A stretch of DNA of 21,544 bases from a bacterium (GCA_037137535.1 JBAXKC010000043.1:1-21544); one strand, 5' to 3'. Shown: positions 60-20,400, counted from the first letter of the stretch. Notes: generated by a model not told the origin, from the sequence alone. Numbers and translations are program-made.

Positions 60-98
60 AAAAAAAACGGACTTTTATCTTCAAAAATAAAAGTCCGT
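60..98 (-). terminator. Intrinsic (rho-independent) terminator downstream of the MCP gene
   Basis: Perfect 12-bp inverted repeat ACGGACTTTTAT (67-78) / ATAAAAGTCCGT (87-98) with an 8-nt loop. The A-run at 60-66 gives a poly-U tail on the minus strand. It lies about 50 nt after the MCP stop. Confidence 0.85.
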
Positions 99-150
99 CA
101 ACATTATAAAAAAATTTAAACTATTAATAAAAAGCGTGATGATTTTACAC

Positions 151-2778
151 TTAAAGTTTAAATATCTGCACAATATGAGCTAATTTTTCGGCTATACCAG
201 CTAGTACCTGACTTGTAGCAGCAATTTCCTGACTTGAAGCCGTCTGTTGTTGAACAGCAGCAGCTACTGTTTGCGTATTATCAGAGGCTTGTTTTGATAT
301 ATTTGAAATATGTTCAATAGATTGAACTATTTCTTGTACTCCACTTGTTATGATTCCTGCATCTTTTGCTACATTATTTGCTTTTTGAGATACATCTTTA
401 ACAGCAGTGCTTATTTCCTCAAAGGAATTACCAGCTTCATCTATTAGCATATTGCCGACTTTTACAGCTTCTATTCCTTCTTCCATAGAGATATTAGCTT
501 TAATTACTTCTGTATTTATCTCTTTTATTATAGTTCCAATTTGTTTAGCTGCTGTTGATGTTTGTTGAGCTAAATTTCTTACTTCCGCTGCTATTACTGA
601 AAAGCCTTTGGCATCTTTTCCTGCTCTTGCCGCTTCTATAGAGGCATTAAGAGAAAGTAATCCTGTTTGTTGTGCTATTTTAGAAATCATAACAGTCATG
701 TTATTTATTTCTTTTGATTTTATTCCTAAATCATTAACAATTAATGAAGAAGCAATAACTTTTTCATTAATTTCTTTTATTTGTAATATGGCTTTTTTAA
801 CGTTTTCATTTCCTTCTAGTGATTTTTCTGCAGTTGAATTTGAGAGTTCAGACATATTTAAAATATTATCGTTAACTTTGTTTATTTTTTCAGAAATCTC
901 ACATGCAGTCAGATATGATTTTTCGCTCATAATGGCCTGAGTTTCCGCACCTTCGGCAACATCTTGAATAGACATTGATACTTGCTCAATAGCCCTTGAT
1001 GATTCATCCGTAATTGCAGTAAGTTCTTCTGCGGCTGCGGACATTTGAGAAGCACCATCAAAAATTTGTCCTACTATGTCTTTAAGATTTGTTTGCATTT
1101 TTCCAAATGCTTGGAACAAATCATCAATTTCTTCATCTTCAATATCTTCAATTTGAAGTTTTTCTGTAAGATCCTCATCCGCAATTCTATTTGCTACTTT
1201 TGTCAGTTTTTGGAAAGGATTAGCTATATTTTTAGCAATAAAGAAAGCAATTACCCCTGCTATTGAAACAAAACTCACAATTAAAAGTATCGAATTTAAT
1301 GTATTTTTTTGTTGAGAGCTAGAGGCTTCATTTACTGATTTTGCATTAAGTTCTTCCATTGCTTCACTTGTACTTTGTTCTGCAACAGGTTTTAATTCGT
1401 TAACAGCGGAAGAAGAGGCTTCTTCCGATACTTTGTTCATAAGTATAATTGATGCTGAAACTTGTTTTTTTGCTTCTTCATTCATAACATTTTCTGATTT
1501 TTTAGCAGCATTTATTGCTTTTGATTCCATTGAGGATACGGCCATTGCTAAATGTTTATCTGCTGTTGCTCTGATTATTCCCAGTGTGTTATTAGTTTGA
1601 CTGTTTATTTGATTTTGCATATCCTTTACAACCGAAAAAGCTTCTGCTGTTGGCTCAACAATGATAACATTCCAGCCTAGCGATTTAACAGTAGAATGCA
1701 AACCAAGAACTTCGGTTCCGTCATTTAAAGTAAATACTTTTTTGTCATTATTTCCAGATTTTATGGATTTTACAATTGGATTTGAGGATAAATTTGCTTT
1801 TTTAAGCATAAGTTGTTTATCAGGGTGAAAAATTATTTGTCCGTCATGATCAAGGATAAAAATATAACCTGATTTCCCTATTTTTGTATCAGAAAGAAGA
1901 CTTTCTATACTTGAAAGGTTTAAATCTGCAACAATTGTTCCAACATATTTACCTGGGTAAAGTTGTATAGGAATTCCTAATTTTACATAAGGATATTGTC
2001 TTTTAGATATTTTTACGTCTGATACATATAACTTTCCTCGAGCAGCACTGGCGAACTCAGGAGAAGAAGAGATATCTTTAAGATCGGAAGCATATACCGC
2101 TTCATCAATAGATACTTTTGCAAGCTCTAAACCTGTTTTGTCGGTAATAGCTATATTTGAAAGTTCAGGGAATTTTTTTTGCATAGAAGTAAAAATTGAA
2201 TTAAGAGCAATTGGATCAAGTTTTTTTACATCGGCTAATCCTGCAAATAGCTGTAGAACCTCTTGTGAGTGAACAACCTTTATGTAAATTTCTTTTGCTA
2301 TATTGTCAGCTTTTTCTTCGTTTGTTTGAATAACAGCTCTTCCAAGACTTTCTTTTGAAAGATTTATAAGGTTATTTCCTGTATTTCTGATAGCTGTTTC
2401 TGTAACTTTGCCCACATTGTCATTGGTGTCTTTAATAGTTCTTTTAGAAAGAGCGCTTAATTCATTGCTTGTAGAAAGAAGCGATTGCTTACTTAAATTG
2501 ACAAGACTTTCAGATGTATTGTTTATTGTCTTATTACTTAAATCTGACGAATTTTTCAAGGATTTATGGAGAATTCCTCCAGAAATATTTATCAGACGGT
2601 CGCTTGTATTTTTTATATATGATTTGCTTATTGACCCTAGAAAAGAACTCGTCTTCATTAAACTGTTTTTACTGGAGTCACTTAGTAAAAAGCCCATTAA
2701 TATAAGAGGAACTCCTACTAGAAAAAGCAGCCAAATGACTAATTTTATTATTATTTTTCTTTTCTTTTTTCTTGCCAT
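151..2778 (-). CDS. Methyl-accepting chemotaxis protein, 875 aa: TM1 - helical repeat stalk - dCache_1-like sensor - helical repeat stalk - TM2 - HAMP - MCP signalling domain
   Basis: Signalling-tip motif IAQQTGLLSLNASIEAARAG..GFSVIAAEVRNLA. Cache motifs YVSDV, GTIVADLNL, GKSGYIFILDHDGQIIFHPD and GWNVII. TM segments at about aa 9-32 and 497-515. HAMP-like segment NPFQKLTKVANRIADEDL...EEIDDLFQAFGKM. Confidence 0.95.
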   Translation of the reverse strand: MARKKKRKIIIKLVIWLLFLVGVPLILMGFLLSDSSKNSLMKTSSFLGSISKSYIKNTSDRLINISGGILHKSLKNSSDLSNKTINNTSESLVNLSKQSLLSTSNELSALSKRTIKDTNDNVGKVTETAIRNTGNNLINLSKESLGRAVIQTNEEKADNIAKEIYIKVVHSQEVLQLFAGLADVKKLDPIALNSIFTSMQKKFPELSNIAITDKTGLELAKVSIDEAVYASDLKDISSSPEFASAARGKLYVSDVKISKRQYPYVKLGIPIQLYPGKYVGTIVADLNLSSIESLLSDTKIGKSGYIFILDHDGQIIFHPDKQLMLKKANLSSNPIVKSIKSGNNDKKVFTLNDGTEVLGLHSTVKSLGWNVIIVEPTAEAFSVVKDMQNQINSQTNNTLGIIRATADKHLAMAVSSMESKAINAAKKSENVMNEEAKKQVSASIILMNKVSEEASSSAVNELKPVAEQSTSEAMEELNAKSVNEASSSQQKNTLNSILLIVSFVSIAGVIAFFIAKNIANPFQKLTKVANRIADEDLTEKLQIEDIEDEEIDDLFQAFGKMQTNLKDIVGQIFDGASQMSAAAEELTAITDESSRAIEQVSMSIQDVAEGAETQAIMSEKSYLTACEISEKINKVNDNILNMSELSNSTAEKSLEGNENVKKAILQIKEINEKVIASSLIVNDLGIKSKEINNMTVMISKIAQQTGLLSLNASIEAARAGKDAKGFSVIAAEVRNLAQQTSTAAKQIGTIIKEINTEVIKANISMEEGIEAVKVGNMLIDEAGNSFEEISTAVKDVSQKANNVAKDAGIITSGVQEIVQSIEHISNISKQASDNTQTVAAAVQQQTASSQEIAATSQVLAGIAEKLAHIVQIFKL
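1327..1641 (-). repeat. Seven degenerate 15-aa repeats between the Cache domain and TM2 of the MCP (aa 380-484)
   Basis: AFSVVKDMQNQINSQ / TNNTLGIIRATADKH / LAMAVSSMESKAINA / AKKSENVMNEEAKKQ / VSASIILMNKVSEEA / SSSAVNELKPVAEQS / TSEAMEELNAKSVNE. Position 8 is always M/I/L, position 5 is mostly V/L/I/M and position 12 is mostly A/S. Confidence 0.7.
2359..2673 (-). repeat. Seven 15-aa repeats between TM1 and the Cache domain of the MCP (aa 36-140)
   Basis: SKNSLMKTSSFLGSI / SKSYIKNTSDRLINI / SGGILHKSLKNSSDL / SNKTINNTSESLVNL / SKQSLLSTSNELSAL / SKRTIKDTNDNVGKV / TETAIRNTGNNLINL, followed by SKESL. Confidence 0.8.
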
Positions 2779-2818
2779 GATTTTTTACAAGCCCACCCTT
2801 ATTAAATTCTAAAAATTT

Positions 2819-2855
2819 AACTAATGCTTAGGTTTTAATAGCCTAAGCATTAGTT
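2819..2855 (-). terminator. Strong stem-loop between the substrate-binding protein gene and the MCP gene (partial terminator or mRNA-stabilising hairpin)
   Basis: Perfect 14-bp inverted repeat AACTAATGCTTAGG (2819-2832) / CCTAAGCATTAGTT (2842-2855) with a 9-nt loop, 10 nt after the upstream stop. The minus-strand tail AAATTTTT is an imperfect U-tract. Confidence 0.65.
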
Positions 2856-2865
2856 TATATGAAAT

Positions 2866-3858
2866 TTACTTGCTGTCTGCTTCAATAACTTTTGTTACTT
2901 TATTGAAAAATTCTTCTGGTACTGTAATTCCAAGAGCTTCAGCTGCTTTTAAATTAACAATAATATTTGGAACATCTTGAAGTTGAACAGGCATTGTTTG
3001 AGGTGATTGACCTCCTAATACTTGTTTTGTCATTCCCCATGTTTGAGTTCCAAGCTTAAAGTAATCAGAACATAAACTTGTTAATGCTCCAACTGTTGTT
3101 GGTGGCTCATTTGCTGAAAATACAGGGATTTTAGCAGCAGTTGCAACTTTAATGATTTTTTCTGCATCTACACTTCCAACCATTGTATCAGCAGGGAGAA
3201 AAATAGCATCAACTTTGCCAACAAGGGCTTCAGTTGCTGCGGCCAACTCATCAACGCTTTTAGCAGGACTTGTGAGGATTTCTGTAAATCCAAGCTTTTC
3301 TTTTGCTACATTAACTTCATTAACTTGAACTAAAGCATTACTTTCGGCATCTTTATAGATAATTCCAAGTCTTTTTACGTTTGGAACAACTTCTTTAAAG
3401 GATAAAATTTGTTTTTCTACAGATTGTTTATTGCTTGTTCCTGTAAAATTATTTTTTGTTTCTGTCAAACTTGCTACAATTCCTGATTTCACAGGATCAG
3501 TTACAACTGAAAACAGTACAGGAGTGGTAACACCATGTTCAAGTAAATACTTTGAGCCTGTTGTTCCAACGCTACAAATAGCATCATAGTTTCCTGCTTT
3601 TACTTGTTCTACCATTGTCGCTGCACTTGCGGGATCTTTTTTAACATCATAAGTATCTATAACAATGTCTTTTCCTGCGACAAGTCCATCTTTTTCAATT
3701 CCGTCTAAAAATCCTTTATAAGCTTGATTTAGAAGACTTGAGTTTAAATCCCAGCTCCATATAGCTATTTTATTGATTTTTTTTGTAGCCGCCATAGAGG
3801 GCAGAGCCATAAAACATAGTAAAAAGAACATCAAAAAGACTGCAAATAATTTTTTCAT
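2866..3858 (-). CDS. ABC-transporter-type substrate-binding protein (ABC_sub_bind/TrpX-like family), 330 aa, Sec signal peptide
   Basis: Family motifs PVLFSVVTDPVKSGIV, NFTGTSN, VPNVKRLGIIY..ESNA, VDAIFLPADT, DYFKLG and IVNLKAAEALGITVP. The start is moved from the ORF-track 3885 to ATG 3858 because AGGAG (3867-3871) lies 8 nt upstream and MKKLFAVFLMFFLLCFMALPSMA is a typical signal peptide. Confidence 0.88.
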   Translation of the reverse strand: MKKLFAVFLMFFLLCFMALPSMAATKKINKIAIWSWDLNSSLLNQAYKGFLDGIEKDGLVAGKDIVIDTYDVKKDPASAATMVEQVKAGNYDAICSVGTTGSKYLLEHGVTTPVLFSVVTDPVKSGIVASLTETKNNFTGTSNKQSVEKQILSFKEVVPNVKRLGIIYKDAESNALVQVNEVNVAKEKLGFTEILTSPAKSVDELAAATEALVGKVDAIFLPADTMVGSVDAEKIIKVATAAKIPVFSANEPPTTVGALTSLCSDYFKLGTQTWGMTKQVLGGQSPQTMPVQLQDVPNIIVNLKAAEALGITVPEEFFNKVTKVIEADSK

Positions 3859-3994
3859 GGAATTTACTCCTAACTTTAAACTCACTCATAATAAATTAAT
3901 AATTTATATTATTAATTCCTAAATTATAATATCATTTTTTTTAAAATTTGTGTAATATAATTTCAATTTTAATATATTTAACGAATAAAAACAG

Positions 3995-6769
3995 TTATTT
4001 ATTCTCTGCTCTAAGTAAACAACTGATTTGTTGACTATACTTCTGATAAAAATAGGATAATAACAGCATTATTACTCCCAATCCAATATACGAAATAACT
4101 CTATATAATTGACTAAGGAAAGAAAGATCAATTATGAATACTTTTAATACCGTTATTCCAAGGATTGATAACGCTATATACCATACAGGTTTTATTTTAT
4201 GCAGGATTCCCCAAATCATAAGTCCTATAGAATACATTAGCCATACGCCTGAAATTACAAGTTGTTTTAAATTGTTAAAAAGGTTTAATTTTCCACTATC
4301 AGTGGCAATAGAGCTATTATTTGTTAATAAAAAGATTTCTTTGGCAAACAAATCTTTAACTTCAATTGTTAAAATGAAGAAAATTAAAAGGCTTAAAGTT
4401 ATTTGTATTAATTTAATATACGGATAAATTAAATTATCCTGTGAATTTTGTTTTAGCCATTTTGTTATACAAATAAGTGTAATTATCAGAATTGAAAACA
4501 TAAACATTCTTTCATTGAAGAAAATCGTATAATTCTCAATAGGCACAAAAGAAAATCCATAGAAAATCCCAGCTGATAATGCTAATATTATGCTAAAACT
4601 TCCGCATATAATTAATGGTGTGTTTTTCTTTTTAATTCCTTTTTTAATCAAAGGAATCGAATATAAAGACCAGACTATTGCTAGAAGCATATTTTTACTA
4701 AATAATATACTTTGAGTTATTCCTCCTGTTAAGTTTGTTTTCTTTGTGAAAAAGTCTGAAATTTCACAATTCAACAGGATAAAAATTAATAAACACCAAA
4801 GATAAGTACAAATATTTTTTATGCCTTTAGCCCAAGAATAATTTTGTTCATATTTTTTAATAATATTTGAAGTATACATAAGGCTTAGAGCGGTTAGGCA
4901 AAATGCAACAAAACGCATATTAATTAAAGGTAAAAAGCTTTCAATCGGAGTAAAGGTTAATCCTGTAATTAATAATTGTAAAACCGCAATTGAAATGCCT
5001 GCAAAGCCTGAATATATAAATGATTTTGTTGTTTTATTGAATCCTGCTCTTAATAGCTGAAGCGAATAAGACATCCAAACTATAACTTGTATCATGGATT
5101 TATTAAAGTTAATCAAGTTTGCGGTGTTATTGATTGAATTAAAGGCAAGTTTTGTCATAAAATCATTTACTTCAACGCTAAAGATGATAAATAAAAGTGT
5201 ACACCAGCAATAGTTATAATACTCTTTGAGCAATTTTGTATTTTCTGTTTTATTTAATAATTTTGAACTTATTGCCAGTAAACTTATTAAAATAAGGTAT
5301 GTCATTGTTCTTAGGTTTAATAAAGGAGTATAGTTGTTTAATTCTATAAAACCAAGTGCTTGTTTATTAAAAAGTAACGTTATCATTGAAATAGAAAATA
5401 AATAGGTTGCAGTCTTATATACATAGTTTTTTTGATATTTAAGACCAAGCCATAGTATAGCAAAGGCTTCAATTGACCACATTATTATTTTACTAAATCC
5501 TGTATATTCAATATTAGTAGCGATAACAAGTAATAAAATAGAGGCAATGATGTTTTGTTTCAGATAGTTTTCAGGTTTGTTGAATTTCTTATAAGTGATA
5601 AGTCCCAAGGCAAAATAGATTAAAGATATTATAAAAGTGATAATCGCTATTGAATTATGACTGCAAATTGTATTCATTCCTGCATAAAACATAATTCCGT
5701 TTAATATATTTGAGTAAATTCTTGTATTATTTCCTTTTGAAACTCGGAAAAGGTCTAGCCCTGTGTATCCCATCCATATTGAGAATAAGAAAATAAATGA
5801 AAGCATTGCATTATTAGTTATAGTTGGATTTGTTGTAAAAAAGATGAAATAAGTAGTAAAAATACTTATAAATTCTAATGATTTCCAATTTTCTTTTTTT
5901 ACAAGTAGTGCTATAATCCATCCGTTTAAAAATATAAGATAAGTTAATAACCCCACTATATTTCCTCCGCCCGAATATAGAAGAAAAGGAGTTATAAATC
6001 CGCCTGTCAGTCCTAGTAAGGCAACGGCAACCGAGTCATATTTTAAAGCCTGTTTAAAGGCAAGAATTGTTGATCCGCTCATTAAAACTAATGCAAAACG
6101 ATAATCAATTAAGTGGTAAAAATTAGACGAAGCAAAGGTTGAAAGATAGGAAACCGCTATTCCTGCTCCTGCAAGTCCTTGTGAGAAAGATTTATAATGA
6201 TCTTGTTTAAAGAAATGATTTGCTCCGTAGATAAGTCCTGCCGCAACTAAATAACCTGTTAATATTTGAATGAGAGGGTTGATCCAGTTTTCATCAAAAG
6301 CATATTTTAGAAAAAATCCCATTCCTAAAATTAAAGCTAAAGCTCCGATTTTATTAAACAGGTTCGCCGTTATAAATGTTTCAATCTCTGATTTTTCTCG
6401 TGCTTGCTTATCAGTTTTAGAAAGAATAGGTTCTTCGTTTTCAATTTCTTTTTTTTCTTCATAAAGCTCATTAAAAATAGGCTCATAAGGTTTTTCGGCT
6501 TCTTTTATTATTTCAACTGTTTCTTCCTGAATAATTTCTTCTTTAATAGGTTCTTCCTGATTATCAGAAATATGATTTAGTTTTTTTATTTCAGATTCAA
6601 GCGTAAAAATTCTATATTTTAATTGTCGTATTTCTTCGTTGAACTCTTCTTTAATCTCTTGAATAAGATAAAGAAGAGTTTCTTTATTATTTTTAGGTGA
6701 AGTATTATTTGTTTTCACCAGCCATACAATTCCGTAGATTATTAAAATTAAGAATAATAATGTCATCAT
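3995..6769 (-). CDS. DUF2339-like polytopic membrane protein, 924 aa
   Basis: N-terminal TM, coiled coil and acidic linker, then the family-typical ETFITANLFNKIGALALILGMGFFLKYAF, FSQGLAGAG and LLGLTGGFITPFLL. The C-terminus has LKVFIIDLSFLSQLYRVISYIGLGVIMLLLSYFYQK. It starts 6 nt after the upstream stop, so it is likely co-transcribed. Confidence 0.85.
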   Translation of the reverse strand: MMTLLFLILIIYGIVWLVKTNNTSPKNNKETLLYLIQEIKEEFNEEIRQLKYRIFTLESEIKKLNHISDNQEEPIKEEIIQEETVEIIKEAEKPYEPIFNELYEEKKEIENEEPILSKTDKQAREKSEIETFITANLFNKIGALALILGMGFFLKYAFDENWINPLIQILTGYLVAAGLIYGANHFFKQDHYKSFSQGLAGAGIAVSYLSTFASSNFYHLIDYRFALVLMSGSTILAFKQALKYDSVAVALLGLTGGFITPFLLYSGGGNIVGLLTYLIFLNGWIIALLVKKENWKSLEFISIFTTYFIFFTTNPTITNNAMLSFIFLFSIWMGYTGLDLFRVSKGNNTRIYSNILNGIMFYAGMNTICSHNSIAIITFIISLIYFALGLITYKKFNKPENYLKQNIIASILLLVIATNIEYTGFSKIIMWSIEAFAILWLGLKYQKNYVYKTATYLFSISMITLLFNKQALGFIELNNYTPLLNLRTMTYLILISLLAISSKLLNKTENTKLLKEYYNYCWCTLLFIIFSVEVNDFMTKLAFNSINNTANLINFNKSMIQVIVWMSYSLQLLRAGFNKTTKSFIYSGFAGISIAVLQLLITGLTFTPIESFLPLINMRFVAFCLTALSLMYTSNIIKKYEQNYSWAKGIKNICTYLWCLLIFILLNCEISDFFTKKTNLTGGITQSILFSKNMLLAIVWSLYSIPLIKKGIKKKNTPLIICGSFSIILALSAGIFYGFSFVPIENYTIFFNERMFMFSILIITLICITKWLKQNSQDNLIYPYIKLIQITLSLLIFFILTIEVKDLFAKEIFLLTNNSSIATDSGKLNLFNNLKQLVISGVWLMYSIGLMIWGILHKIKPVWYIALSILGITVLKVFIIDLSFLSQLYRVISYIGLGVIMLLLSYFYQKYSQQISCLLRAENK

Positions 6770-6775
6770 TGTTTT

Positions 6776-9700
6776 TTACGCTCCAACGTTATTCAACCTT
6801 TGATAATACCACTTCTCTACTTCTTTACGCTTAACTTTTCTTGTTGCAGTTTTTGGTAATTCTTCAAGGTTAACCGTAATAACTGTCGGGCATTTATAAG
6901 AAGCAAGTTCAGCTTTTGCCTGTTTATTTACTTCTGAGGTAATAATTTTTTCTAATTCTTTAGGATTGTGCTGATATTGTTTAACTAAGTCATCGGAGGG
7001 AACTATAACGGCACATACTTCTTCTGTTCCGTCTTTTGCTCCGCCCTTAATTTTAACGCTCATAACGCATAGTTCTTTGATTAGTTCATTTTTGGATAAG
7101 GTTGCTTCGACTTCTTCGGGGAATATTTTCTTTCCTCCGCCTAAAACAATCATATTTTTAATTCGACCTGTTATATAAAGGAATCCGTCCTTGTCAAACT
7201 CTCCAATATCGCCTGTATGAAACCAACCTTCTTCATCTATTACTTCTGCGGTCATTTGAGGATTGTTGTAATAGCCTTTCATTAAGTTTGGACCTTTAGT
7301 TAAAATTTCACCTTCTTCTGAAAGTCTTATGATCACACTTGGAAGAGGTTTTCCTACAGAGCCGATGCGATTATCTTCGGGCGTATTTGTAGTTATTGAC
7401 GGGCTTGTTTCTGTCAATCCGTAACCTTGATAAATTGGAATTCCAATTCTTTCAAAGAATTCTCCTACTTCTGTTTCTAGTGGCGCACCGCCGCAGACAA
7501 AGCCTTTTAATTTTCCGCCAAAACCTGCAATAACTTTCTTAAACATAATTCTTCTAATGTGAATAGGCATGTATTTTGCAATTTTATACATAAATTCAAA
7601 GAGGTTTTGAGCTGTTTTATCTGATTTGCGAATTTCTTTTTCTACGCTGTTTTTAAGCATTTTTACAAAAAGCGGAACGACAATCATATATGTTGCCTGT
7701 CTTTCCTTCATAACTTTGCCGATTTCTTTAGGATTTAAGCTTTTGCAGTATGAAACTCTAGCTCCCATATAAAGCATTCCAAGAAAGCCGACATTCAGCT
7801 CTAAAAGGTGATTTAAAGGTAAGATTGAAACAAGAGAATCATTGGAATTGATTTTAAATACTGATTCAAAATCTTTTAATTGGGCGATAATATTTCCGAA
7901 AGTTATCATAACTCCTTTTGGATTACCTGTTGTGCCTGATGTATAGATAATTAAAGCTGTTTCGTCAAGTGTTCTGTCTCTTCCAATATCGCCTTGCGGA
8001 GCTTTTAGTTCATAAACAGATCTAAATTCACAACTTTGCGGTTTTTCTTCTATTACGAAGATATTTTCTATTGAAGGTATATTTTTTTGTAATTCTTTAG
8101 CTGTCTCAATATAATGTGCGGAAACGCATAATATTTTTGGTAAACAATCTGACAAAATAGAAATTAATTCAGCGTTAGTCAGCTTTATATCAAGCGGAAC
8201 GGTTATTGCTCCTGTCTGTATGGATGCAAATAAAGCAATTCCCCACTCTGGTCTTGATTCTGATAAAATAGCAATTTTATCGTTTCTTTCAAGTCCGTTA
8301 GCGATTAAATAATTTGCAAAGTTTTTTGCCTGTCTTGAAAGTTCAATGTAGCTTAATTCTTTCCAGCTGTCTTTATCTTTAAGTGATAAGGCTTTAACAG
8401 GTCCGTGGATGTCGCCTTTAAACTGCATTAGGTCAAGCACGTTTTCATAATCAGTTTTAGCTGCTTTTATTTTTTCTTTTCTTTCAATAGAATCCTTCAT
8501 AAATTGAACTCTGTCTTTGAGTTCATCAACAACGTTATCTTCCAGGTTGTAGATAGGTTGCCCGAATTGAATAGTGATTTTCTTGAATGTAGGAAATAAT
8601 TTATTATAAGCCCAAGCTTCAAAACCGCCGTGAATTACAAACGGAACTATGGGAGTGTTGCTGTTTTTTGCCATATAAGCAACGCCTTTGTTGAATTTGT
8701 TCAGTTTCCCGTCAGTAGTTAATTTCCCTTCGGGAAATATACAAAGGACTTCACCTTTTAATAGTTTTTTAACGGCAACATCAAGGGCTTCAACTCCTTT
8801 TCGAGGTTTAATTGCTATTACGTTAAAATAGTTTATGATTAACCTTATTACGGGAAGATTAAAGGCAACTTCGCCTGTGATAAACCATATCGGTCTTTTA
8901 CAGGCTACTTGAAGTATTAAAGTGTCAATCCAGCCTGTATGATTACCTGCAAGTATCATTTTACCGCTAGTTTTAAGATGTTCTCTTCCTTCAATTTTTA
9001 TTGGAAAGAAAACTCTAAAAATACTGCCAAATGTTGTACGTACTAAAAAGTGACGGAATGGGCTGTCAAAAAGTAACACAATAAGCGCCATTGAAAAACT
9101 TAATGCGGAAACGCTTTTAAATACATTAATCGGGCTTTTAATTGTCAAAACTTCGGATACAATCCACATTGTAGCTAGAAATGCACCTGTTGTAACGGTT
9201 GAGCGGAAACCGAAGATTTTTCCTCTTAATCTGTCTGGGGTTACTTTTTGGAGAATTGTATCTAATGTAATTAAAATAATAGAATTTGCAATTCCTATTA
9301 AAACCAGCCAGCCCCAAGCCATTGAATAAGTTTTTACAAGCTGAGCCGTTGCTGTTGTAAGGAAAATAGCAAGAAATGAGCCTGCGAGCAAATAAGAAAT
9401 TCTGATATATTTGCTTAAATACAAGGTGATTAATGTTCCCAATATCATTCCCACTCCAAGCATTCCTTTGAGTTTGCTTACTCCCGAAATTCCGATTTTA
9501 AAATAGTCGGTAGCTAGAGCGTTCATTGAATTGAAAAATGATGCTGTAATTAAGGACAAAGCGACTGATAGAAGAATTAATCTTAAAGTTTTTTTATGTT
9601 TTTTTAAATAAGCTAAAGTAAATCCAAAATCTTTAAATACGGTGTTATAAATACATTTGCCTACGCAGATTGTTGTATGTTTGCCAAGCTTCAAAAGTGA

Positions 9701-10282
9701 TGCGAATAAGGCTGAAATAATATAAATAAAACCGTTTAGGAATAAGCCGTTAGCTAAGCCTATTTTGTTGATATAAATTCCTGAGATTATCGCTCCTAAA
9801 AGGATTGCGATAGTTGCTGTTCCAGAATTTAAAGCATTGGCTAATTGTAAATGTTCTGATTTTACAATGTTTGGCAGGGTACTTTGTTTTGCAGGATAAT
9901 AAAAAGCAGAACCGATTCCCATTAAAAATGAAAACCCGTATATTGAAAAATTGGTATCTGCGATTATAATGGTATTTTTGAATAAAAAGGCAGGAATAAT
10001 AAAGACTAGAAGGGCCCTATAGGCATTACTGCACACCATAATCCATTTGCGGGAAAATCTGTCGGCAATACCCCCCGCTAAAGGACTTAGTAAGAGAGAA
10101 GGCAACATGAAGAAAAACAGAATTTTTGCCATTTCAGAACCGGCTTTTTGTGAAAAGCTTATCACCCAACTCATTAAAGCAATTTGAATAATGGAATCTC
10201 CTAAATAAGAGCAAATTTGCCCCAGCCATAATTTAAGAAATTCTTTGTTTTTAAATAAATTCGTAAATTTAATCTGCTTCAC
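6776..10282 (-). CDS. Three-domain fusion, 1168 aa: MFS transporter + PlsC-type lysophospholipid acyltransferase + AMP-forming long-chain acyl-CoA/ACP synthetase (LplT/Aas-like lipid salvage)
   Basis: GTG start with AGGAG at 10291-10295. MFS motif A is GGIADRFSRK. Acyltransferase motifs are NHTGWID (HX4D) and IFPEG. Adenylation motifs are YTSGTTGNPKG, GYGLTE, GWFHTGD, ITGRIK and LPKTATRKVKR. Confidence 0.92.
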   Translation of the reverse strand: MKQIKFTNLFKNKEFLKLWLGQICSYLGDSIIQIALMSWVISFSQKAGSEMAKILFFFMLPSLLLSPLAGGIADRFSRKWIMVCSNAYRALLVFIIPAFLFKNTIIIADTNFSIYGFSFLMGIGSAFYYPAKQSTLPNIVKSEHLQLANALNSGTATIAILLGAIISGIYINKIGLANGLFLNGFIYIISALFASLLKLGKHTTICVGKCIYNTVFKDFGFTLAYLKKHKKTLRLILLSVALSLITASFFNSMNALATDYFKIGISGVSKLKGMLGVGMILGTLITLYLSKYIRISYLLAGSFLAIFLTTATAQLVKTYSMAWGWLVLIGIANSIILITLDTILQKVTPDRLRGKIFGFRSTVTTGAFLATMWIVSEVLTIKSPINVFKSVSALSFSMALIVLLFDSPFRHFLVRTTFGSIFRVFFPIKIEGREHLKTSGKMILAGNHTGWIDTLILQVACKRPIWFITGEVAFNLPVIRLIINYFNVIAIKPRKGVEALDVAVKKLLKGEVLCIFPEGKLTTDGKLNKFNKGVAYMAKNSNTPIVPFVIHGGFEAWAYNKLFPTFKKITIQFGQPIYNLEDNVVDELKDRVQFMKDSIERKEKIKAAKTDYENVLDLMQFKGDIHGPVKALSLKDKDSWKELSYIELSRQAKNFANYLIANGLERNDKIAILSESRPEWGIALFASIQTGAITVPLDIKLTNAELISILSDCLPKILCVSAHYIETAKELQKNIPSIENIFVIEEKPQSCEFRSVYELKAPQGDIGRDRTLDETALIIYTSGTTGNPKGVMITFGNIIAQLKDFESVFKINSNDSLVSILPLNHLLELNVGFLGMLYMGARVSYCKSLNPKEIGKVMKERQATYMIVVPLFVKMLKNSVEKEIRKSDKTAQNLFEFMYKIAKYMPIHIRRIMFKKVIAGFGGKLKGFVCGGAPLETEVGEFFERIGIPIYQGYGLTETSPSITTNTPEDNRIGSVGKPLPSVIIRLSEEGEILTKGPNLMKGYYNNPQMTAEVIDEEGWFHTGDIGEFDKDGFLYITGRIKNMIVLGGGKKIFPEEVEATLSKNELIKELCVMSVKIKGGAKDGTEEVCAVIVPSDDLVKQYQHNPKELEKIITSEVNKQAKAELASYKCPTVITVNLEELPKTATRKVKRKEVEKWYYQRLNNVGA

Positions 10283-14468: not shown

Positions 14469-17400
14469 ATGCCAGTTAATTTGTATGAAAACGAGAATCC
14501 TTCAGTTTATAAATATACTTATGAATATGGAAGATTTAATGAACTTTTAAGTGAGAAAGAATACAGCTTAGATGGATCTACTTTAATCTCAGAATCTAAA
14601 TACACATATAATTATAATGCAGATAATACTTTGGTTTTAGTTGAAGCACACAAAGATATTTATAATGATGATATTAAAACAGCAGTAATCAAATATGAAT
14701 ATAATGAAAGTGGAGATGCAGTTACTAAGGAATCTTATTTTAATTGTGATCCTAAATTAGGGTTATTACCTACTTATATTAAGCATTTGGACGAAAATGG
14801 AAATGTAATTTCTTCAGAATATCTTAGTAATCGCTTTGACGAAAACGGAAATATAATTTCTTCTACAATGTACGATAATTTAGAGCTTTTAGCTAATTCT
14901 GAATTAATGGGAAATGTTAAAGATATAGCAACTGCCGGTTTAGCGGCAGCAGTTTCAGCTGAAGATTTAACTCATACAGCTTTAGAAAATGCTACAACTG
15001 CTAAAAATAATGCTATTGCTACTGCTGCCGCTACACAAACAGCTTTAGAAAATGCTACAACTGCTAAAAGTGAAGCTATTGCTGAAGCAGCTACGACGCA
15101 AACAGCTTTAGAAAATGCTACCTCTGCTCTTGCGACAGCAACTTCAAATGCAACAGCAACTGAAACGGCGAAAATTAATGCTACAACTGCAAGAACTAAT
15201 GCAATTGAAGCGGCAGCAATTACGCAAACCGCTTTGGATAATGCAACAACTGCGAAAACAAATGCTATTGCTGCCGCTTCAGTTACCCAAACCGCTTTAG
15301 ATAATGCTAGCTCTGCTCTTGCAACAGCAATTGCAAATGCAACAGCAACTGAAACTGCGAAAAATAATGCTACAACTGCAAGAACTAATGCAATTGCTGC
15401 TGCTGCAATTACACAAACAGCGTTAGATAATGCTACCTCTGCTCTTACATCTGCAACTTCAAATGCAACAACAACACAAACAGCATTGGATAGTGCCACA
15501 ACTGATAAAAACAATGCTATTGCTGCTGCTGCAGTTACACAAACAGCTTTAGAAAATGCTGCCACTGTTAAAAATAACGCTATAGCTGCCGCTGCAGTTA
15601 CGCAAATCACTTTAGAAAATGCTGCCTCTGCTCTTGCAACAGCAATTGCGAATGCAACAGCAACTGAAACTGCGAAAACTAATGCTAATACTGCAAGAGA
15701 TAATGCTATTGCTGATGCTGCAATTACGCAAACAGCTTTAGATAATGCTACATCTGCTCTTGCAACAGCAACGTCAAATGCAACAGCAACTGAAACTGCG
15801 AAAATTAATGCTACCACTGCGAAAATTAATGCTATTTCTGCTGCTGCAATTACGCAAACAGCTTTGGATAATGCAACAACCGATAAAACTAATGCTATTA
15901 CTGCCGCTGCAGTAACCCAAACAGCTTTAGATAATGCTACCTCTGCTCTTGCAACAGCAACTTCAAATGCGACAGCAACTGAAACTGCGAAAACTAATGC
16001 AACAACTGCAAGAACTAATGCTATCGCTGCTGCCGCAGTTACGCAAACCGCTTTAGATAATGCTGTCTCTGCTCTTGCAACAGCAACGTCAGATGCAACA
16101 GCAACTGAAACTGCGAAAATTAATGCTACTACTGCAAGAACTAACGCAATTGCTGCCGCCGCAGTTACTCAAACCGCTTTGGATAATGCTATAACTGCTA
16201 AAAACAATGCAATAGCTGATGCCGCAGTTACTCAAACAGCTTTAGATAATGCTACATCTGCTTTAGCTTCAGCTGTTACAAATGCCGGAACTACTCAAAC
16301 TGCATTAGATAATGCTACTACTGCTAAAAGCAACGCTATTACAGCTGCAGCTACTGCCGCTTTGGCTCTTACGAACGATGCTACTAATATATCGCTTATT
16401 GCTGCTAAACAAGCGGCAGATGCACTTGTAGTAACAAAAACAAATGAATTAGATGCCCTCAGAACACCGGAATACCTTGCGGCTCTTGCCTTAAAAGAAG
16501 AAGCTGTTGCAGCTGCAGTAATAACAAATAATGCATTAGTTGCAGCAACATCAGCTCATGATGCTGCTGTCGCGGCAGCCGCAGCTACTCAAACAGCCTT
16601 AAATAATGCAACAACTACATGGGGTAATGCCGTAACAGCAGCAGCACTTACAGAAACAGCTAAAATTAACGCTGCAACTGCATTAAGTGATGCCGTAACA
16701 GCAGCAGGAATAACAGAAACAGCTAAAACTAATGCCACAACTGCATTAAGTGATGCCGTAACAGCGGCAGGAATAACAGAAACAATTAAAACTAATGCCA
16801 CAACTGCTCGTGACACAGCTGTTACTGCTGCGGCATTAACTGAAACAGCGAAAACTAATGCTGTAAATGTCTGGAATGATGCTGTAGCAGCTGCAGTAGC
16901 CACTCAAACAGCAAAAGATAATGCTGTTACTGCCTTATCAACTGCAAACACAAATGCTGCAACTGCATTAACAGCAATGAATAATGCCACAACTTTATTA
17001 AATAATGCAATTGCTGCTGCCAATAACACTGAAGCTTCAAAAGTTGCAGCAACAAATGCAAAAGTAACTGCAGTTGCAAATGCTGCAACTGCATTAGCAG
17101 CAAAAAATGCTGCAACTACTGCAAAAGCTGATGCAGTTGCAGCAGCTGTAATCACTCAAAATGCTGTAAATACTGCAACTACTGCAAAATCAGATGCAGA
17201 AGCAGCCGCCGCATTAACTCAAGCAGATGTAGACGTTGCTTCGTTAGCCTGGAACAATGCTGTAACTGGTGCAGCAACGGCCGCAAGTAATCTTGCTGAT
17301 GATCCTTCAAATGTAACTCTTCAAACGGCAAAGGATAATGCTGATGCTTTAGTTGTCTCTACATTAGCGACTTTAACAAATGCAACAACCATTGATGATG

Positions 17401-20400
17401 CTTATGATGCTATAGTTGTAACAAAAACAGCTGAATTAGCCGCTGCCGTAGCGGCAGATAATACAGCTGATGCACTGGTTATAACAAGAAACTCTCAATT
17501 AGCAACTGCAAATACAGCATTAACAACAGCAAATGCCTTAGTAACAAGTAAAACTAATGCTTTGAATATGGCTATATCAATAGATAATGTAACTGATGCT
17601 TCAGTTATAACAAGAGCTAATGAATTAAATACCGCTACAACTGCATATAATACAGCAACTGCTTTAGTTACAACAAAAACAAATGAATTAACTACTGCCA
17701 CATCAGCAGATGATGCTGCAGATGCTCTAGTCGCTACTGACTTAACTGCCAAAAATGCTGCTATATCAGCAGATAATGCAGCTGATGCTTTAGTTACAAC
17801 AAGAAATAATGAATTAAGCGCAGCTACAACAGCAGATACAACAGCTGATGATTTAGTCGCAACAAGAACAAGTGAGTTAAATACTGCTACAACAGCAGAT
17901 ACAACAGCTGATAACTTAGTAACCACAAGAACTACAGAATTAGCGACAGCCACAACAAATGATCAAAATGCTGACGCTTTAGTTGTTTCAACATTAGCTA
18001 CAAAAGTAAGTGCTACCAATGCCGATAATACAGCTGATGGTATAGAATCATCAACAAATGCAACATTAATAAGCGCTACTGCTGCAGATAATGCAGCTGA
18101 TACTCTGGTAACAACAAGAACCAACGCAGTAAACGCTACAATCTCACCGGAAGCTATAGCCGCAGGTGAAGCGCTAAATTCAGCAATCAATGCCGCTGCA
18201 ATAACTCAAACTGCAAAGAATACAGCAACAACAGCATTAGCAACGGCAATTTCAAATGCGACAGCTACTGAAGCTGCTAAAATTAATGCTACAACTGCTC
18301 GTGATGCAGCTGTTACAGCTGCGGCATTAACTGAAACAGCAAAAAATGATGCGGATACAGAATGGAATAATGCAGTTTCAGCAGCTGTAATAACTCAAAC
18401 GGCAAAAGACAATGCTACAACTGATTTAGCAACCGCAACTAATGCCGCAGCCGCTACTCAATCTATAAAAGATACGGCAGTAACTGCACTTGCAAATGCT
18501 GAATCTGCAGCTGCTATAACTCAAACAGCTAAAGATAATGCTACATCAGCACTTACATCAGCAACAAATAATGCTGCTATAACTCAAACAGCAAGAGATA
18601 ATGCCATAGCTGCTTATAATAGTGCTGTATCAGCAGCAGCTACAACCCAAACTGCCAAAGATAACGCTACAACTGCTTATAATAATGCTGTTTCATCAGC
18701 AGCTATTACTCAAACAGCTAAAGATGCAGCCAGTTCAGAGCTGGCAACCGCAGTATCAGCTGCTATTGTAACTCAAACCGCTAAAGATGCGGCAGTTGCT
18801 GCATTGGCAAGTGCAAATACTAGCGCAGCAGCAACTGAAACTGCTAAAATAGCTGCAAATACAGCATTAACAACAGCAAATACTAATGCCGCAGCAACGG
18901 AAACCGCAAAAAACAATGCAATAACGGCTTATAATAATGCTGTCACTGCTGCTGCAGTTACAGAAACAAATAAAACAAATGCAAGTTCAGATTTAGATGC
19001 TGCAGTTGCGGCAGCGGCTACTACTCAAGCAACTAAGGACGCAGCCAGTACTGCTCTTAGTTCTGCAGTTACAGCAGCAGCTGCTACTCAAGCTACAAAA
19101 AATACTGCAACTTCTGAATTAACCGCCGCTACAAATGCGGCTCTTGAAACTCAAGATGCTAAAGATGCTGCAACATCAGCATGGAATGATGCAGTCTCCT
19201 TTGCCGCATTTACACAAACCTCAGTAGATGATGCAACAATAGCATTAAATAGTGCAAATACTGCAGCGTCAGATGCAGCAGCTGCATTAGTAGGTCATGA
19301 ATCTGATGCGGGGCTTATTGCCGCAAAAGCAGCAGCTGATGATCTTGTTATTTCTGCAACAGCTGATCTTACAAATGCTACAACAATAGATACTTTTATG
19401 GATTCATTGGTTTCTACAACAGCATCAGATTTAACAGCGGCAACAAATGCTGATGATGCGGCGGATGCTTTAGTTTTAACAAAAACTACTGCATTAACTA
19501 ATGCCACAAATGCTGATGATACTGCGCAGGCTTTAGTTGCAACAAGAACAACCGCTTTAACTAATGCTACAAATGCAGATAATACTGCAGATGCTTTGGT
19601 GGTAACAAGAACAACCGCTTTAACCAATGCTACAAATGCAGATAATACTGCTAATGCCTTGGTTACCTCAACATTAGCCGCTAAAAATGCTGCAATAACC
19701 GCAGATAATACTGCTGATGCTTTAGTTGTTACAAGAACAAATGAATTAACTGCGGCAACAACAGCAGATACAACAGCTGATAACTTAGTCACAACAAGAA
19801 CTACTGAATTAGCTACTGCAACAACAGCAGATAATACAGCCGATGCTTTAGTGGTAACTAAAACCACTGCTTTAAATAATGCAACTAATTCTAACAACGT
19901 ATTAGAGGGTTTAGTTTCAGCAAGAGCTGCTGACTTAGCAACTGCGACAACTAATGATAATAATGCGGATGCGTTAGTTGCCTCTAGGTTAGCCACAAAA
20001 AATACGGCAATATCAACAGACGATATTGCAGATGCATTAGTTACAACAAGAACCTCTGAATTGACAACTGCGACAAATAATGATAATACAGCAGATGCTT
20101 TGGTTACAACAAGAACTAATGAATTGGCAACGGCCACAACTAACGATAATATTGCAGATGCGTTAGTTACAACAAGAACAAATGAATTAGCTACTGCCAC
20201 AACTGCGGATAATACAGCAGATGCTCTAGTTGCAACTAAATTAGGACTATTAAATGCTGCTATTAGTGCTGATGATACAGCAGATGCCTTGGTTGTAACT
20301 CGAAATAATCAACTGACTACAGCTACAAATACTGATAATACAGCAGATGCGTTGGTTGTAACTCGAAATAATCAACTGACAGATGCTACAAGTGCCGATG

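Follow-up and report, generated by a model that had tools for sequence, protein, structure and literature searches.

A dCache chemoreceptor whose sensor domain is flanked by matched arms of 15-residue repeats

We analyzed a stretch of bacterial DNA of 21,544 nucleotides (JBAXKC010000043.1 of assembly GCA_037137535.1; the whole stretch is called the window below), in which a gene on the minus strand encodes a methyl-accepting chemotaxis protein (MCP), here P0001. The gene product is a transmembrane chemoreceptor with the order TM1–dCache_1–TM2–HAMP–MCP signalling domain, where TM1 and TM2 are the two transmembrane (TM) helices. Between the dCache_1 sensor and each TM helix lies an arm of 15-residue repeats (pentadecads). 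P0001 is an ordinary dCache chemoreceptor with a paired pentadecad stalk that is unprecedented within the literature covered. We consider it likely that the two arms form an extended antiparallel, probably right-handed coiled coil, which lifts the sensor by approximately 16 nm.

No extracellular sensor is commoner in bacteria than the Cache domain. In the accepted picture these domains sit directly on the TM helices, which constrains every model of how a ligand moves TM2. In the receptor described here, about 30 predicted helical turns are inserted between sensor and membrane on each side.

The arms are additions to an ordinary dCache receptor

Positions 1327–2673 of the window, to which a reading from the sequence only had drawn attention, correspond to amino acids (aa) 36–484 of P0001, i.e. 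the Cache domain and its two flanks. The dCache_1 (PF02743) match spans profile positions 3–239 of 240. Hydropathy peaks at aa 9–27 and 497–515 flank the sensor, and the HAMP domain follows the second peak. Pfam returned nothing for P0001 at E ≤ 1 beyond Cache, HAMP and MCPsignal, which leaves both flanking arms without a family model; 4HB_MCP, TarH and HBM were among the families without a match at this threshold. When each arm was searched against PDB sequences, nothing fell below E 0.28: the N arm gave one match at E = 0.28, to a designed repeat protein, and the C arm gave none.

For comparison with relatives, aa 1–520 were scanned with full HMMER against 1.84 billion representatives, which resulted in 4938 matches at E ≤ 0.001, and the best 150 of the 4938 were inspected. 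Gaps were measured from TM1 to the extrapolated Cache start and from the Cache end to TM2. Among these best 150, the TM1-to-dCache gap has a median of 8 residues and is 12 or less in 128 of the 136 measurable proteins, and the dCache-to-TM2 gap has a median of 17 (n = 142 measurable), with a range of 6–36 apart from the stalked proteins. The corresponding gaps in P0001 are 117 and 123 residues, i.e. approximately 109 and 106 beyond the usual, close to the 105 or so extra residues per side that the sequence-only reading had estimated. With the TM and Pfam boundaries of Table 1, the sensor of P0001 is about 113 residues away from TM1 and about 119 from TM2. An N gap of at least 90 residues occurs in six of the best 150 (P0001, P0006, P0007, P0008, P0009 and P0014) and a C gap of at least 90 in four (P0001, P0007, P0011 and P0014). 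P0010 is intermediate, with gaps of 25 and 36.

The small median gaps bear out the premise of that reading, namely that typical dCache sensors sit directly on the TM helices. Canonical dCache_1 chemoreceptors (such as PctA, Mlp24/Mlp37 and Tlp3, whose sensor-domain structures are also the best fold matches) have the same domain order as P0001 and share its Cache fold at VIA Z 19–20. In these receptors the first Cache helix directly extends TM1, as the available part of one source describes (PMC4822843), whereas P0001 has pentadecads in both gaps. P0001 therefore departs from the usual architecture, in which the helices continue straight into TM1 and TM2, and not in the domain itself.

In the genome of the window, 24 open reading frames (ORFs) encode an MCP signalling domain. 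Periplasmic spans of approximately 153–168 or 278–296 residues are found in most of them, and only the two stalked receptors, P0001 and a paralog (P0165), have spans of 457 and 469 residues. Since the other MCPs have ordinary spans, the stalk is specific to these receptors, and we rejected the idea that it answers a general need of the organism's envelope.

Both arms carry one continuous 15-residue pattern

Periodicity was measured by BLOSUM autocorrelation scored against 500 shuffles per lag and by Fourier peaks scored against 1000 shuffles. At lags of 15, 30 and 45 residues the autocorrelation reached z = 5.9, 6.1 and 5.9 for aa 36–140 and z = 3.2, 3.5 and 2.9 for aa 380–484. The hydrophobic Fourier peak lies at 3.75 residues (15/4) in both arms, and it was equalled by none of the 1000 shuffles for the N arm and by 6 of 1000 for the C arm. 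In the cytoplasmic domain of P0001 the hydrophobic peak lies at 3.50. The 15-residue periodicity proposed for both flanks is thus confirmed, and the proposed count of seven copies per flank was about right: the register layout contains seven 15-mers in the C arm (aa 382–486) and eight in the N arm (aa 31–150). All 12 stalk segments tested, taken from 8 proteins, peak at 3.73–3.77 residues, with 0–8 of 1000 shuffles equalling the peak.

The phase of the 3.75 period is maintained along each arm. It stays at approximately −90 to −113 degrees over aa 30–154 in the N arm (within about 25 degrees) and at approximately 0–42 degrees over aa 375–489 in the C arm. This steady phase indicates one uninterrupted hydrophobic seam per arm. 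In the register table, hydrophobic or small residues occupy positions 2, 5, 10 and 13 of the 15-mer, and positions 8 and 15 are strongly polar. Of the 1553 ORFs in the genome that reach 250 aa or more, the two stalked receptors come second and third for 3.75-periodicity over 105 residues, with scores of 169 and 156 compared with a 99th percentile of 102.

At the DNA level, Tandem Repeats Finder detected no repeat within the arms. As the repeats have no DNA-level similarity, they are old and diverged, and a recent repeat expansion was discarded as an explanation. We also discarded N-glycosylation sequons, which recur in the N arm as N-x-S/T, because the Asn is not retained in the group of P0014, a distant relative.

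A periodicity of 15/4 = 3.75 residues per turn gives right-handed supercoiling that is as pronounced as the left-handedness of heptads, according to the portion of PMC4786415 that was available. This agrees with the premise of the sequence-only reading that pentadecads mark right-handed coiled coils. Applied to the 3.75 periodicity of the arms, the rule suggests that they form a right-handed coiled coil.

The two arms change length together

Arm lengths were compared between conserved anchors. The N span starts where the PLILMG motif ends and runs to NxEKA, and the C span starts after QPTxEAF and runs to the HAMP Pro; for P0014 and P0010 the C span was determined by manual counting. The N and C spans are 123 and 140 residues in P0001, P0165 and P0014. 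They are 108 and 125 in P0002, P0007 and both halves of a related gene from genome G023, a change of −15/−15 relative to P0001, and 37 and 54 in P0010, a change of −86/−86. P0169 has one 15-residue gap in each arm. With a second anchor pair, P0014, P0168 and P0172–P0175 have spans of 125 and 145, and P0176 has 127 and 149. A check suggested along with the first reading was whether the repeat counts on the two sides co-vary. Both arms are changed by an identical number of residues in 12 of the 13 full-length proteins (0/0 in eight, −15/−15 in three and −86/−86 in one). The two arms are matched to the residue even across proteins that are only 21% identical: P0014, at this distance from P0001, keeps the arm lengths and the register and builds them from ordinary helix-forming residues.

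A further fixed point is Pro464 (motif LKPVAE), which lies inside the C-arm helix about 29 residues above TM2. In all measured full-length members the HAMP Pro follows it at a distance of 57 residues, and all C-arm length changes are located above Pro464. Both structure models described below keep Pro464 helical, and the residue is a possible hinge or kink.

By alignment, the N-arm repeat missing from P0169 is a different one from that missing in P0002 and P0007. In a quick maximum-likelihood tree, P0014 is at the base of the stalked clade, and the short P0010 is then nested inside it (Shimodaira–Hasegawa-like approximate likelihood ratio test, SH-aLRT, 95). In the same tree P0169 groups with the proteins that have seven repeats in each arm (SH-aLRT 86). 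The different deletion sites together with this grouping indicate that the paired changes probably arose more than once, and the tree suggests that the short form of P0010 is a secondary loss; both conclusions are tentative.

Structure models predict helical arms

Two AlphaFold2 (AF2) monomer models were read from their DSSP strings and by superposition on solved structures. For P0001 (aa 1–520, 70-sequence alignment) the mean predicted local distance difference test score (pLDDT) is 83.4, with helices at residues 2–84, 89–179, 382–435 and 440–519. The Cache domain is predicted with a pLDDT of approximately 92–98 (aa 140–390). It superposes on 3li8_A with VIA Z 20.4 (root-mean-square deviation, rmsd, 2.8; 226 residues aligned) and on 6iop_A with Z 20.1 (rmsd 3.2; 230 aligned), and approximately 38 other Cache-type sensor entries are among the 50 structural matches listed. 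The predicted domain has the double PAS-like fold with a long N-terminal helix.

The model of the paralog P0165 (aa 30–529) has a mean pLDDT of 81.8 and two unbroken helices at model residues 2–159 and 355–499 (158 and 145 residues). Its best non-Cache matches are long antiparallel hairpins. It aligns with 4ke2_A over 193 of 196 residues (Z 10.5, rmsd 5.2), with the Smc coiled coil 5xg2_A over 236 of 237 (Z 9.7) and with the soluble chemoreceptor 3g67_A over 210 of 213 (Z 9.0); long helices commonly give Z scores in this range, and the matches describe shape only. Both arms are thus predicted to be helical throughout in both models, save for one low-confidence break per arm in the P0001 model, and the arms of the paralog are predicted to form an extended hairpin.

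A proposed stalk and signal relay

The rise of an alpha-helix is approximately 0.15 nm per residue, so that 105–109 extra residues would add about 16 nm of height. In the arrangement that we favor, the sensor would be raised off the inner membrane by two continuous alpha-helices of approximately 110 residues each. The N arm would prolong TM1 into the first Cache helix, and the C arm would lead back from Cache to TM2. The arms would pack antiparallel through the 15/4 seam, which offers one residue per turn, with the large Leu and Ile of the N arm facing the small or flexible Ala, Ser, Val and Met of the C arm. Dimerization of the receptor would make the stalk a bundle of four helices. A ligand-induced shift between the first and last Cache helices could then be carried down the stalk to TM2 and HAMP, presumably as a piston-type movement. 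Such a relay would be comparable to that along the cytoplasmic four-helix hairpin of chemoreceptors, which covers a similar distance.

The purpose of the height is a matter for conjecture. The stalk could be a molecular ruler that sets the Cache sensor beyond the peptidoglycan near the outer membrane, where it might sample entering solutes directly or via a neighbouring binding protein, although we regard this as rather doubtful, and that the stalk reaches the peptidoglycan or the outer membrane is speculation. In one relative, a gene for a phosphate-selective porin would complete such a cluster. The signal would have to cross a right-handed periplasmic coiled coil of about 16 nm as well as the cytoplasmic hairpin, a helical path of over 40 nm in total. 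Should the ruler idea be true, the receptor would represent a new solution to transmembrane signalling and would lend itself to testing piston against rotation models, as versions with one, six and seven repeats already exist in nature. An extended stalk also raises the cell-biological question of what merits sensing 16–24 nm above the inner membrane.

Extended stalk or other arrangements

Several observations weigh against an extended stalk. The P0001 model breaks both arms half-way, at aa 85–88 and 436–439 with pLDDT below 50, and among helical structures it superposes best on the four-helix stalk of MxB (4x0r_A, Z 10.8, rmsd 4.2, 187 residues aligned, model residues 31..494); with these breaks and this match, the model is folded back. 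Confidence in the lower stalk is low, with pLDDT 53–70 in the P0001 model and 53–72 when both models are considered, and fewer than 10 sequences underlie the stalk portion of either alignment. Ser, Asn and Thr, which do not favor helices, are abundant in the N arm of P0001. One protein, P0176, has unequally changed arms (+2/+4). The tree comes from a quick, unfinished search with long-branch warnings and includes the stalk columns. Equal arm lengths alone do not discriminate between an extended and a folded-back form, as they suit a folded-back four-helix bundle equally. As to an input through a binding protein, in the window a terminator-like hairpin separates the receptor gene from the neighbouring binding-protein gene.

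The folded-back form suggested by the P0001 model would consist of one helical hairpin per arm, with approximately 54 residues up and 54 down, which together make a Tar-like four-helix bundle with Cache inserted in a membrane-proximal loop. The sensor would then not be elevated, and the bundle might itself bind ligands. We consider this improbable. The break sites read INNT and AKKQ, ordinary repeat sequence with neither Gly nor Pro; the 3.75 phase shows no jump there, and the paralog model has no break, all of which favors the extended form. The helix at aa 89–179 runs continuously and confidently into Cache, and if it ran downwards it would be expected to push Cache into the membrane plane. 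The loss of 15 residues from each arm would move each turn by 7.5 residues to a different repeat position, and P0010, with only about 17–19 extra residues per arm, has too few to fold back and can only extend straight. The families of compact helical sensors named above are also without a Pfam match at E ≤ 1. The antiparallel extended stalk that the sequence-only reading had proposed is partly supported, by the unbroken seam, the paired lengths, the hairpin in the paralog model and the short P0010, and not by the P0001 model, broken and folded back as it is. The compact four-helix fold, which had been named as the outcome that would speak against a stalk, appears in the P0001 model and is absent from the paralog model with its extended two-helix hairpin.

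Another view keeps the stalk extended and makes it mainly a docking or sensing surface, for the neighbouring binding protein, another envelope component or envelope geometry, instead of a passive spacer. Binding-protein genes are adjacent in all three loci with context (PF04392 in the window and the PstS family in the other two, at the paralog and at the G023 gene, where a phosphate-selective porin gene is also adjacent), the repeat surface is conserved in pattern (Ser, Thr, Asn and Lys), and the available part of PMC8050422 describes binding proteins that attach side-on to the sensor domains of receptors. However, the P0014 group conserves the core positions and not the exposed ones, a repeat number varying between six and seven suits a spacer better than a specific site, and the hairpin between the two genes of the window again speaks against the pairing. 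On balance this view seems unlikely. We give very little credence to arms that are not helical at all, either as flexible low-complexity linkers or as a beta-solenoid with 15 residues per turn, in which case the periodicity would stem from repeat duplication without structural meaning. The composition of the N arm would fit, and some antifreeze proteins carry fifteen-residue beta-helical repeats. On the other hand, hydrophobic or small residues recur once per 3.75 residues without the alternation of beta-strands, and positions 8 and 15 are polar. The C arm is rich in Ala, Glu, Lys and Met, equal residue numbers in the two arms imply the same rise per residue in both, and lengths and register are maintained at 21% identity. 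AF2 gives helix throughout, and there is no repeat in the DNA. The beta-solenoid was dropped because the hydrophobic pattern does not alternate and the arms are equal in residue count.

Comparison with known systems

A close parallel to the proposed stalk is the cytoplasmic hairpin of chemoreceptors. The length classes of this hairpin (in heptads; Alexander and Zhulin) evolve by symmetric insertions and deletions in both arms, as far as the available part of PMC5907407 describes them. Both structures would be antiparallel helical hairpins that form a four-helix bundle in the dimer and relay a signal over tens of nanometres, and both change length symmetrically. They differ in the side of the membrane, in the repeat unit (7 residues, 3.50 and left-handed, versus 15 residues, 3.75 and of right-handed type), in the tip (kinase-binding versus the globular sensor of the stalk) and in sequence, where there is no similarity. 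The paired changes in arm length of the stalked receptors indicate that the symmetric mode of insertion and deletion, known for the cytoplasmic hairpin, operates in the periplasm too.

Stalks of trimeric autotransporter adhesins (YadA type) also carry pentadecad repeats. There, too, 15/4 periodicity builds a long rigid stalk that projects a head domain from a membrane, but in the adhesins the trimers are parallel, have their anchor in the outer membrane and do not signal, and we claim no sequence relation. HBM and other elongated helical sensors (CtpL, McpS and TorS) share elongated all-helical periplasmic parts with the stalked receptors. In HBM, however, the helices themselves are the ligand-binding modules (approximately 250 residues), whereas the stalk arms are regular repeats that carry Cache and match none of HBM, 4HB and TarH in Pfam at E ≤ 1. 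The hyperactive antifreeze protein Maxi of winter flounder (4ke2), a helical hairpin of approximately 195 residues that superposes on the stalk model of P0165, is a geometric analogue only, being an unrelated soluble eukaryotic protein.

If the stalk is extended, the conformational change of the Cache domain has to be preserved along 16 nm of antiparallel coiled coil with an unusual 15/4 periodicity. Receptors with approximately one, six and seven repeats form a natural length series and are ready-made constructs for tests of signal propagation.

The stalked family is very rare

The paralog P0165 is encoded on another contig of the same genome and is 37% identical to P0001 over aa 1–520; P0009 is a fragment of it. 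In genome G023 (same order, 73% complete) the gene of the stalked receptor is split by a frameshift at approximately codon 170 (L024:3811–6335, minus strand). P0169 is an intact 841-aa allele of this gene from another assembly, and an error in assembly or recent pseudogene formation could account for the split. Matches that cover the stalk were found in 2 of 41 relatives and in 2 of 401 genomes of the order. In a phylum sample of 401 genomes, only the genome of the window itself has such a match, and the 18 other matching genomes align only over approximately aa 131–401.

More distant members were detected in metagenome-assembled genomes (MAGs). P0014 comes from a MAG labelled Betaproteobacteria. 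A search with P0014 gave its relatives P0172–P0176, one of them from a MAG labelled Chitinophagales, and P0168 is a near-identical cluster mate. P0014 and P0174 are 63% identical, yet their MAGs are labelled Betaproteobacteria and Chitinophagales, which points to horizontal transfer or mislabelled bins.

Other searches added little. A profile search of genome contigs with alignment A3 gave no further relative, and the same search of metagenome contigs gave none; with P0002 as query, the latter gave only two loci, which match the cytoplasmic domain. In word-indexed protein searches, P0001 retrieved P0002 as its sole stalked relative and profile A4 retrieved ordinary Cache proteins only. The ESM Atlas returned only ordinary dCache clusters and no large cluster with the stalked architecture, which says little because the Atlas omits small clusters. 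In the literature covered, which excludes subscription journals, we found no description of a periplasmic coiled-coil stalk that carries a Cache or chemoreceptor sensor.

Neighbouring genes and a possible binding-protein input

The features of the receptor gene and its surroundings are listed in Table 1.

Table 1. Coordinates of the receptor gene, its domains and neighbouring features in the window.
Feature	Position	Strand	Evidence
Receptor gene, whole, stop codon included; 875-aa methyl-accepting chemotaxis protein (P0001)	151..2778	-	ORF list and translation, Pfam
TM1, approximately aa 9–31	2686..2754	-	hydropathy window; helix in AF2 model
N arm of stalk, aa 32–144, approximately 7.5 pentadecads, consensus.LI.LS...I..TS.	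2347..2685	-	autocorrelation, 3.75 period, constant phase, register table
dCache_1 sensor domain, aa 145–373	1660..2346	-	Pfam 74.4 bits (cut-off 45), AF2 pLDDT, fold matches
C arm of stalk, aa 374–492, seven pentadecads, consensus.A...M...S.....	1303..1659	-	autocorrelation, 3.75 period, phase track, register table
Pro464 codon (motif LKPVAE)	1387..1389	-	anchor measurements
TM2, approximately aa 493–515	1234..1302	-	hydropathy
HAMP, aa 513–567	1078..1242	-	Pfam 33.2 bits (cut-off 25)
MCP signalling domain (PF00015, MCPsignal), C-terminal, aa 643–827	298..852	-	Pfam 118 bits (cut-off 34.6); heptad (3.50) periodicity
Orphan periplasmic solute-binding protein gene (PF04392, TrpX-like), directly upstream of the receptor gene	2866..3885	-	Pfam 193.5 bits
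13-bp inverted repeat with T-rich tail, terminator-like, between the binding-protein and receptor genes	2811..2854	-	read from the sequence; absent from the list of the consensus scan
Terminator-like hairpin downstream of the receptor gene	66..99	-	consensus scan

A gene for a solute-binding protein adjoins the receptor gene in all three loci with context, i.e. in the window, in the paralog locus (L023:10332–11171) and in the G023 locus (L024:2915–3763). The binding protein of the window scores 190 bits with the NCBIfam model TrpX, below the cut-off of 390, and no transporter genes are near its gene. In the paralog locus (L023:7665–11171, on contig C4 of the same genome) a PstS-family gene lies 30 bp downstream of the stalked receptor, with no pstCAB genes nearby. 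In the G023 locus (L024:1472–6335) a PstS-family gene downstream of the receptor is followed by the gene of a phosphate-selective porin (Porin_O_P). The clusters of the paralog and G023 may be a phosphate-taxis module.

Because a binding-protein gene is adjacent in all three loci, we propose as a reasonable secondary hypothesis that the sensor could be served by a solute-binding protein; gene order gives hints of this. Receptors stimulated by binding proteins include Cache-type ones with the binding-protein gene adjacent to the receptor gene, and also CtpL, which is stimulated by PstS, in the part of PMC8050422 that was available; the paralog with its PstS-family neighbour may be alike. In the window, the 13-bp hairpin with its T-rich tail makes co-transcription doubtful, and the two genes may be transcribed separately. 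When an amino-acid-binding motif was sought in the sensor, the alignments to PDB entries extended only over the central strand of the Cache domain.

Directly upstream of the binding-protein gene, positions 3995–6769 (minus strand) encode a polytopic membrane protein of 924 aa (DUF2339) whose N-terminal region is helical and rich in Glu and Lys. Positions 6776–10282 (minus strand) encode a 1168-aa fusion of a major facilitator superfamily (MFS) transporter, an acyltransferase and an AMP-binding enzyme, which we take to resemble the pair of lysophospholipid transporter and acyltransferase/acyl-ACP (acyl carrier protein) synthetase of diderm bacteria. At the far end of the window, an ORF of more than 2358 aa (14469–21542, plus strand) is open at the window end, has no Pfam match and contains approximately 41% G+C, compared with approximately 30% elsewhere in the window. 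Beyond the first 150 or so residues, nearly the whole product is made up of tandem repeats rich in Ala, Thr and Asn, which are of two types, one of approximately 33–36 residues (…ATATETAKINATTARTNAIAAAAVTQTALDNATSAL…) and one of 21 residues (…TTADNLVTTRTNELATATTAD…). From its sequence, the product looks like a giant fibrous repeat protein.

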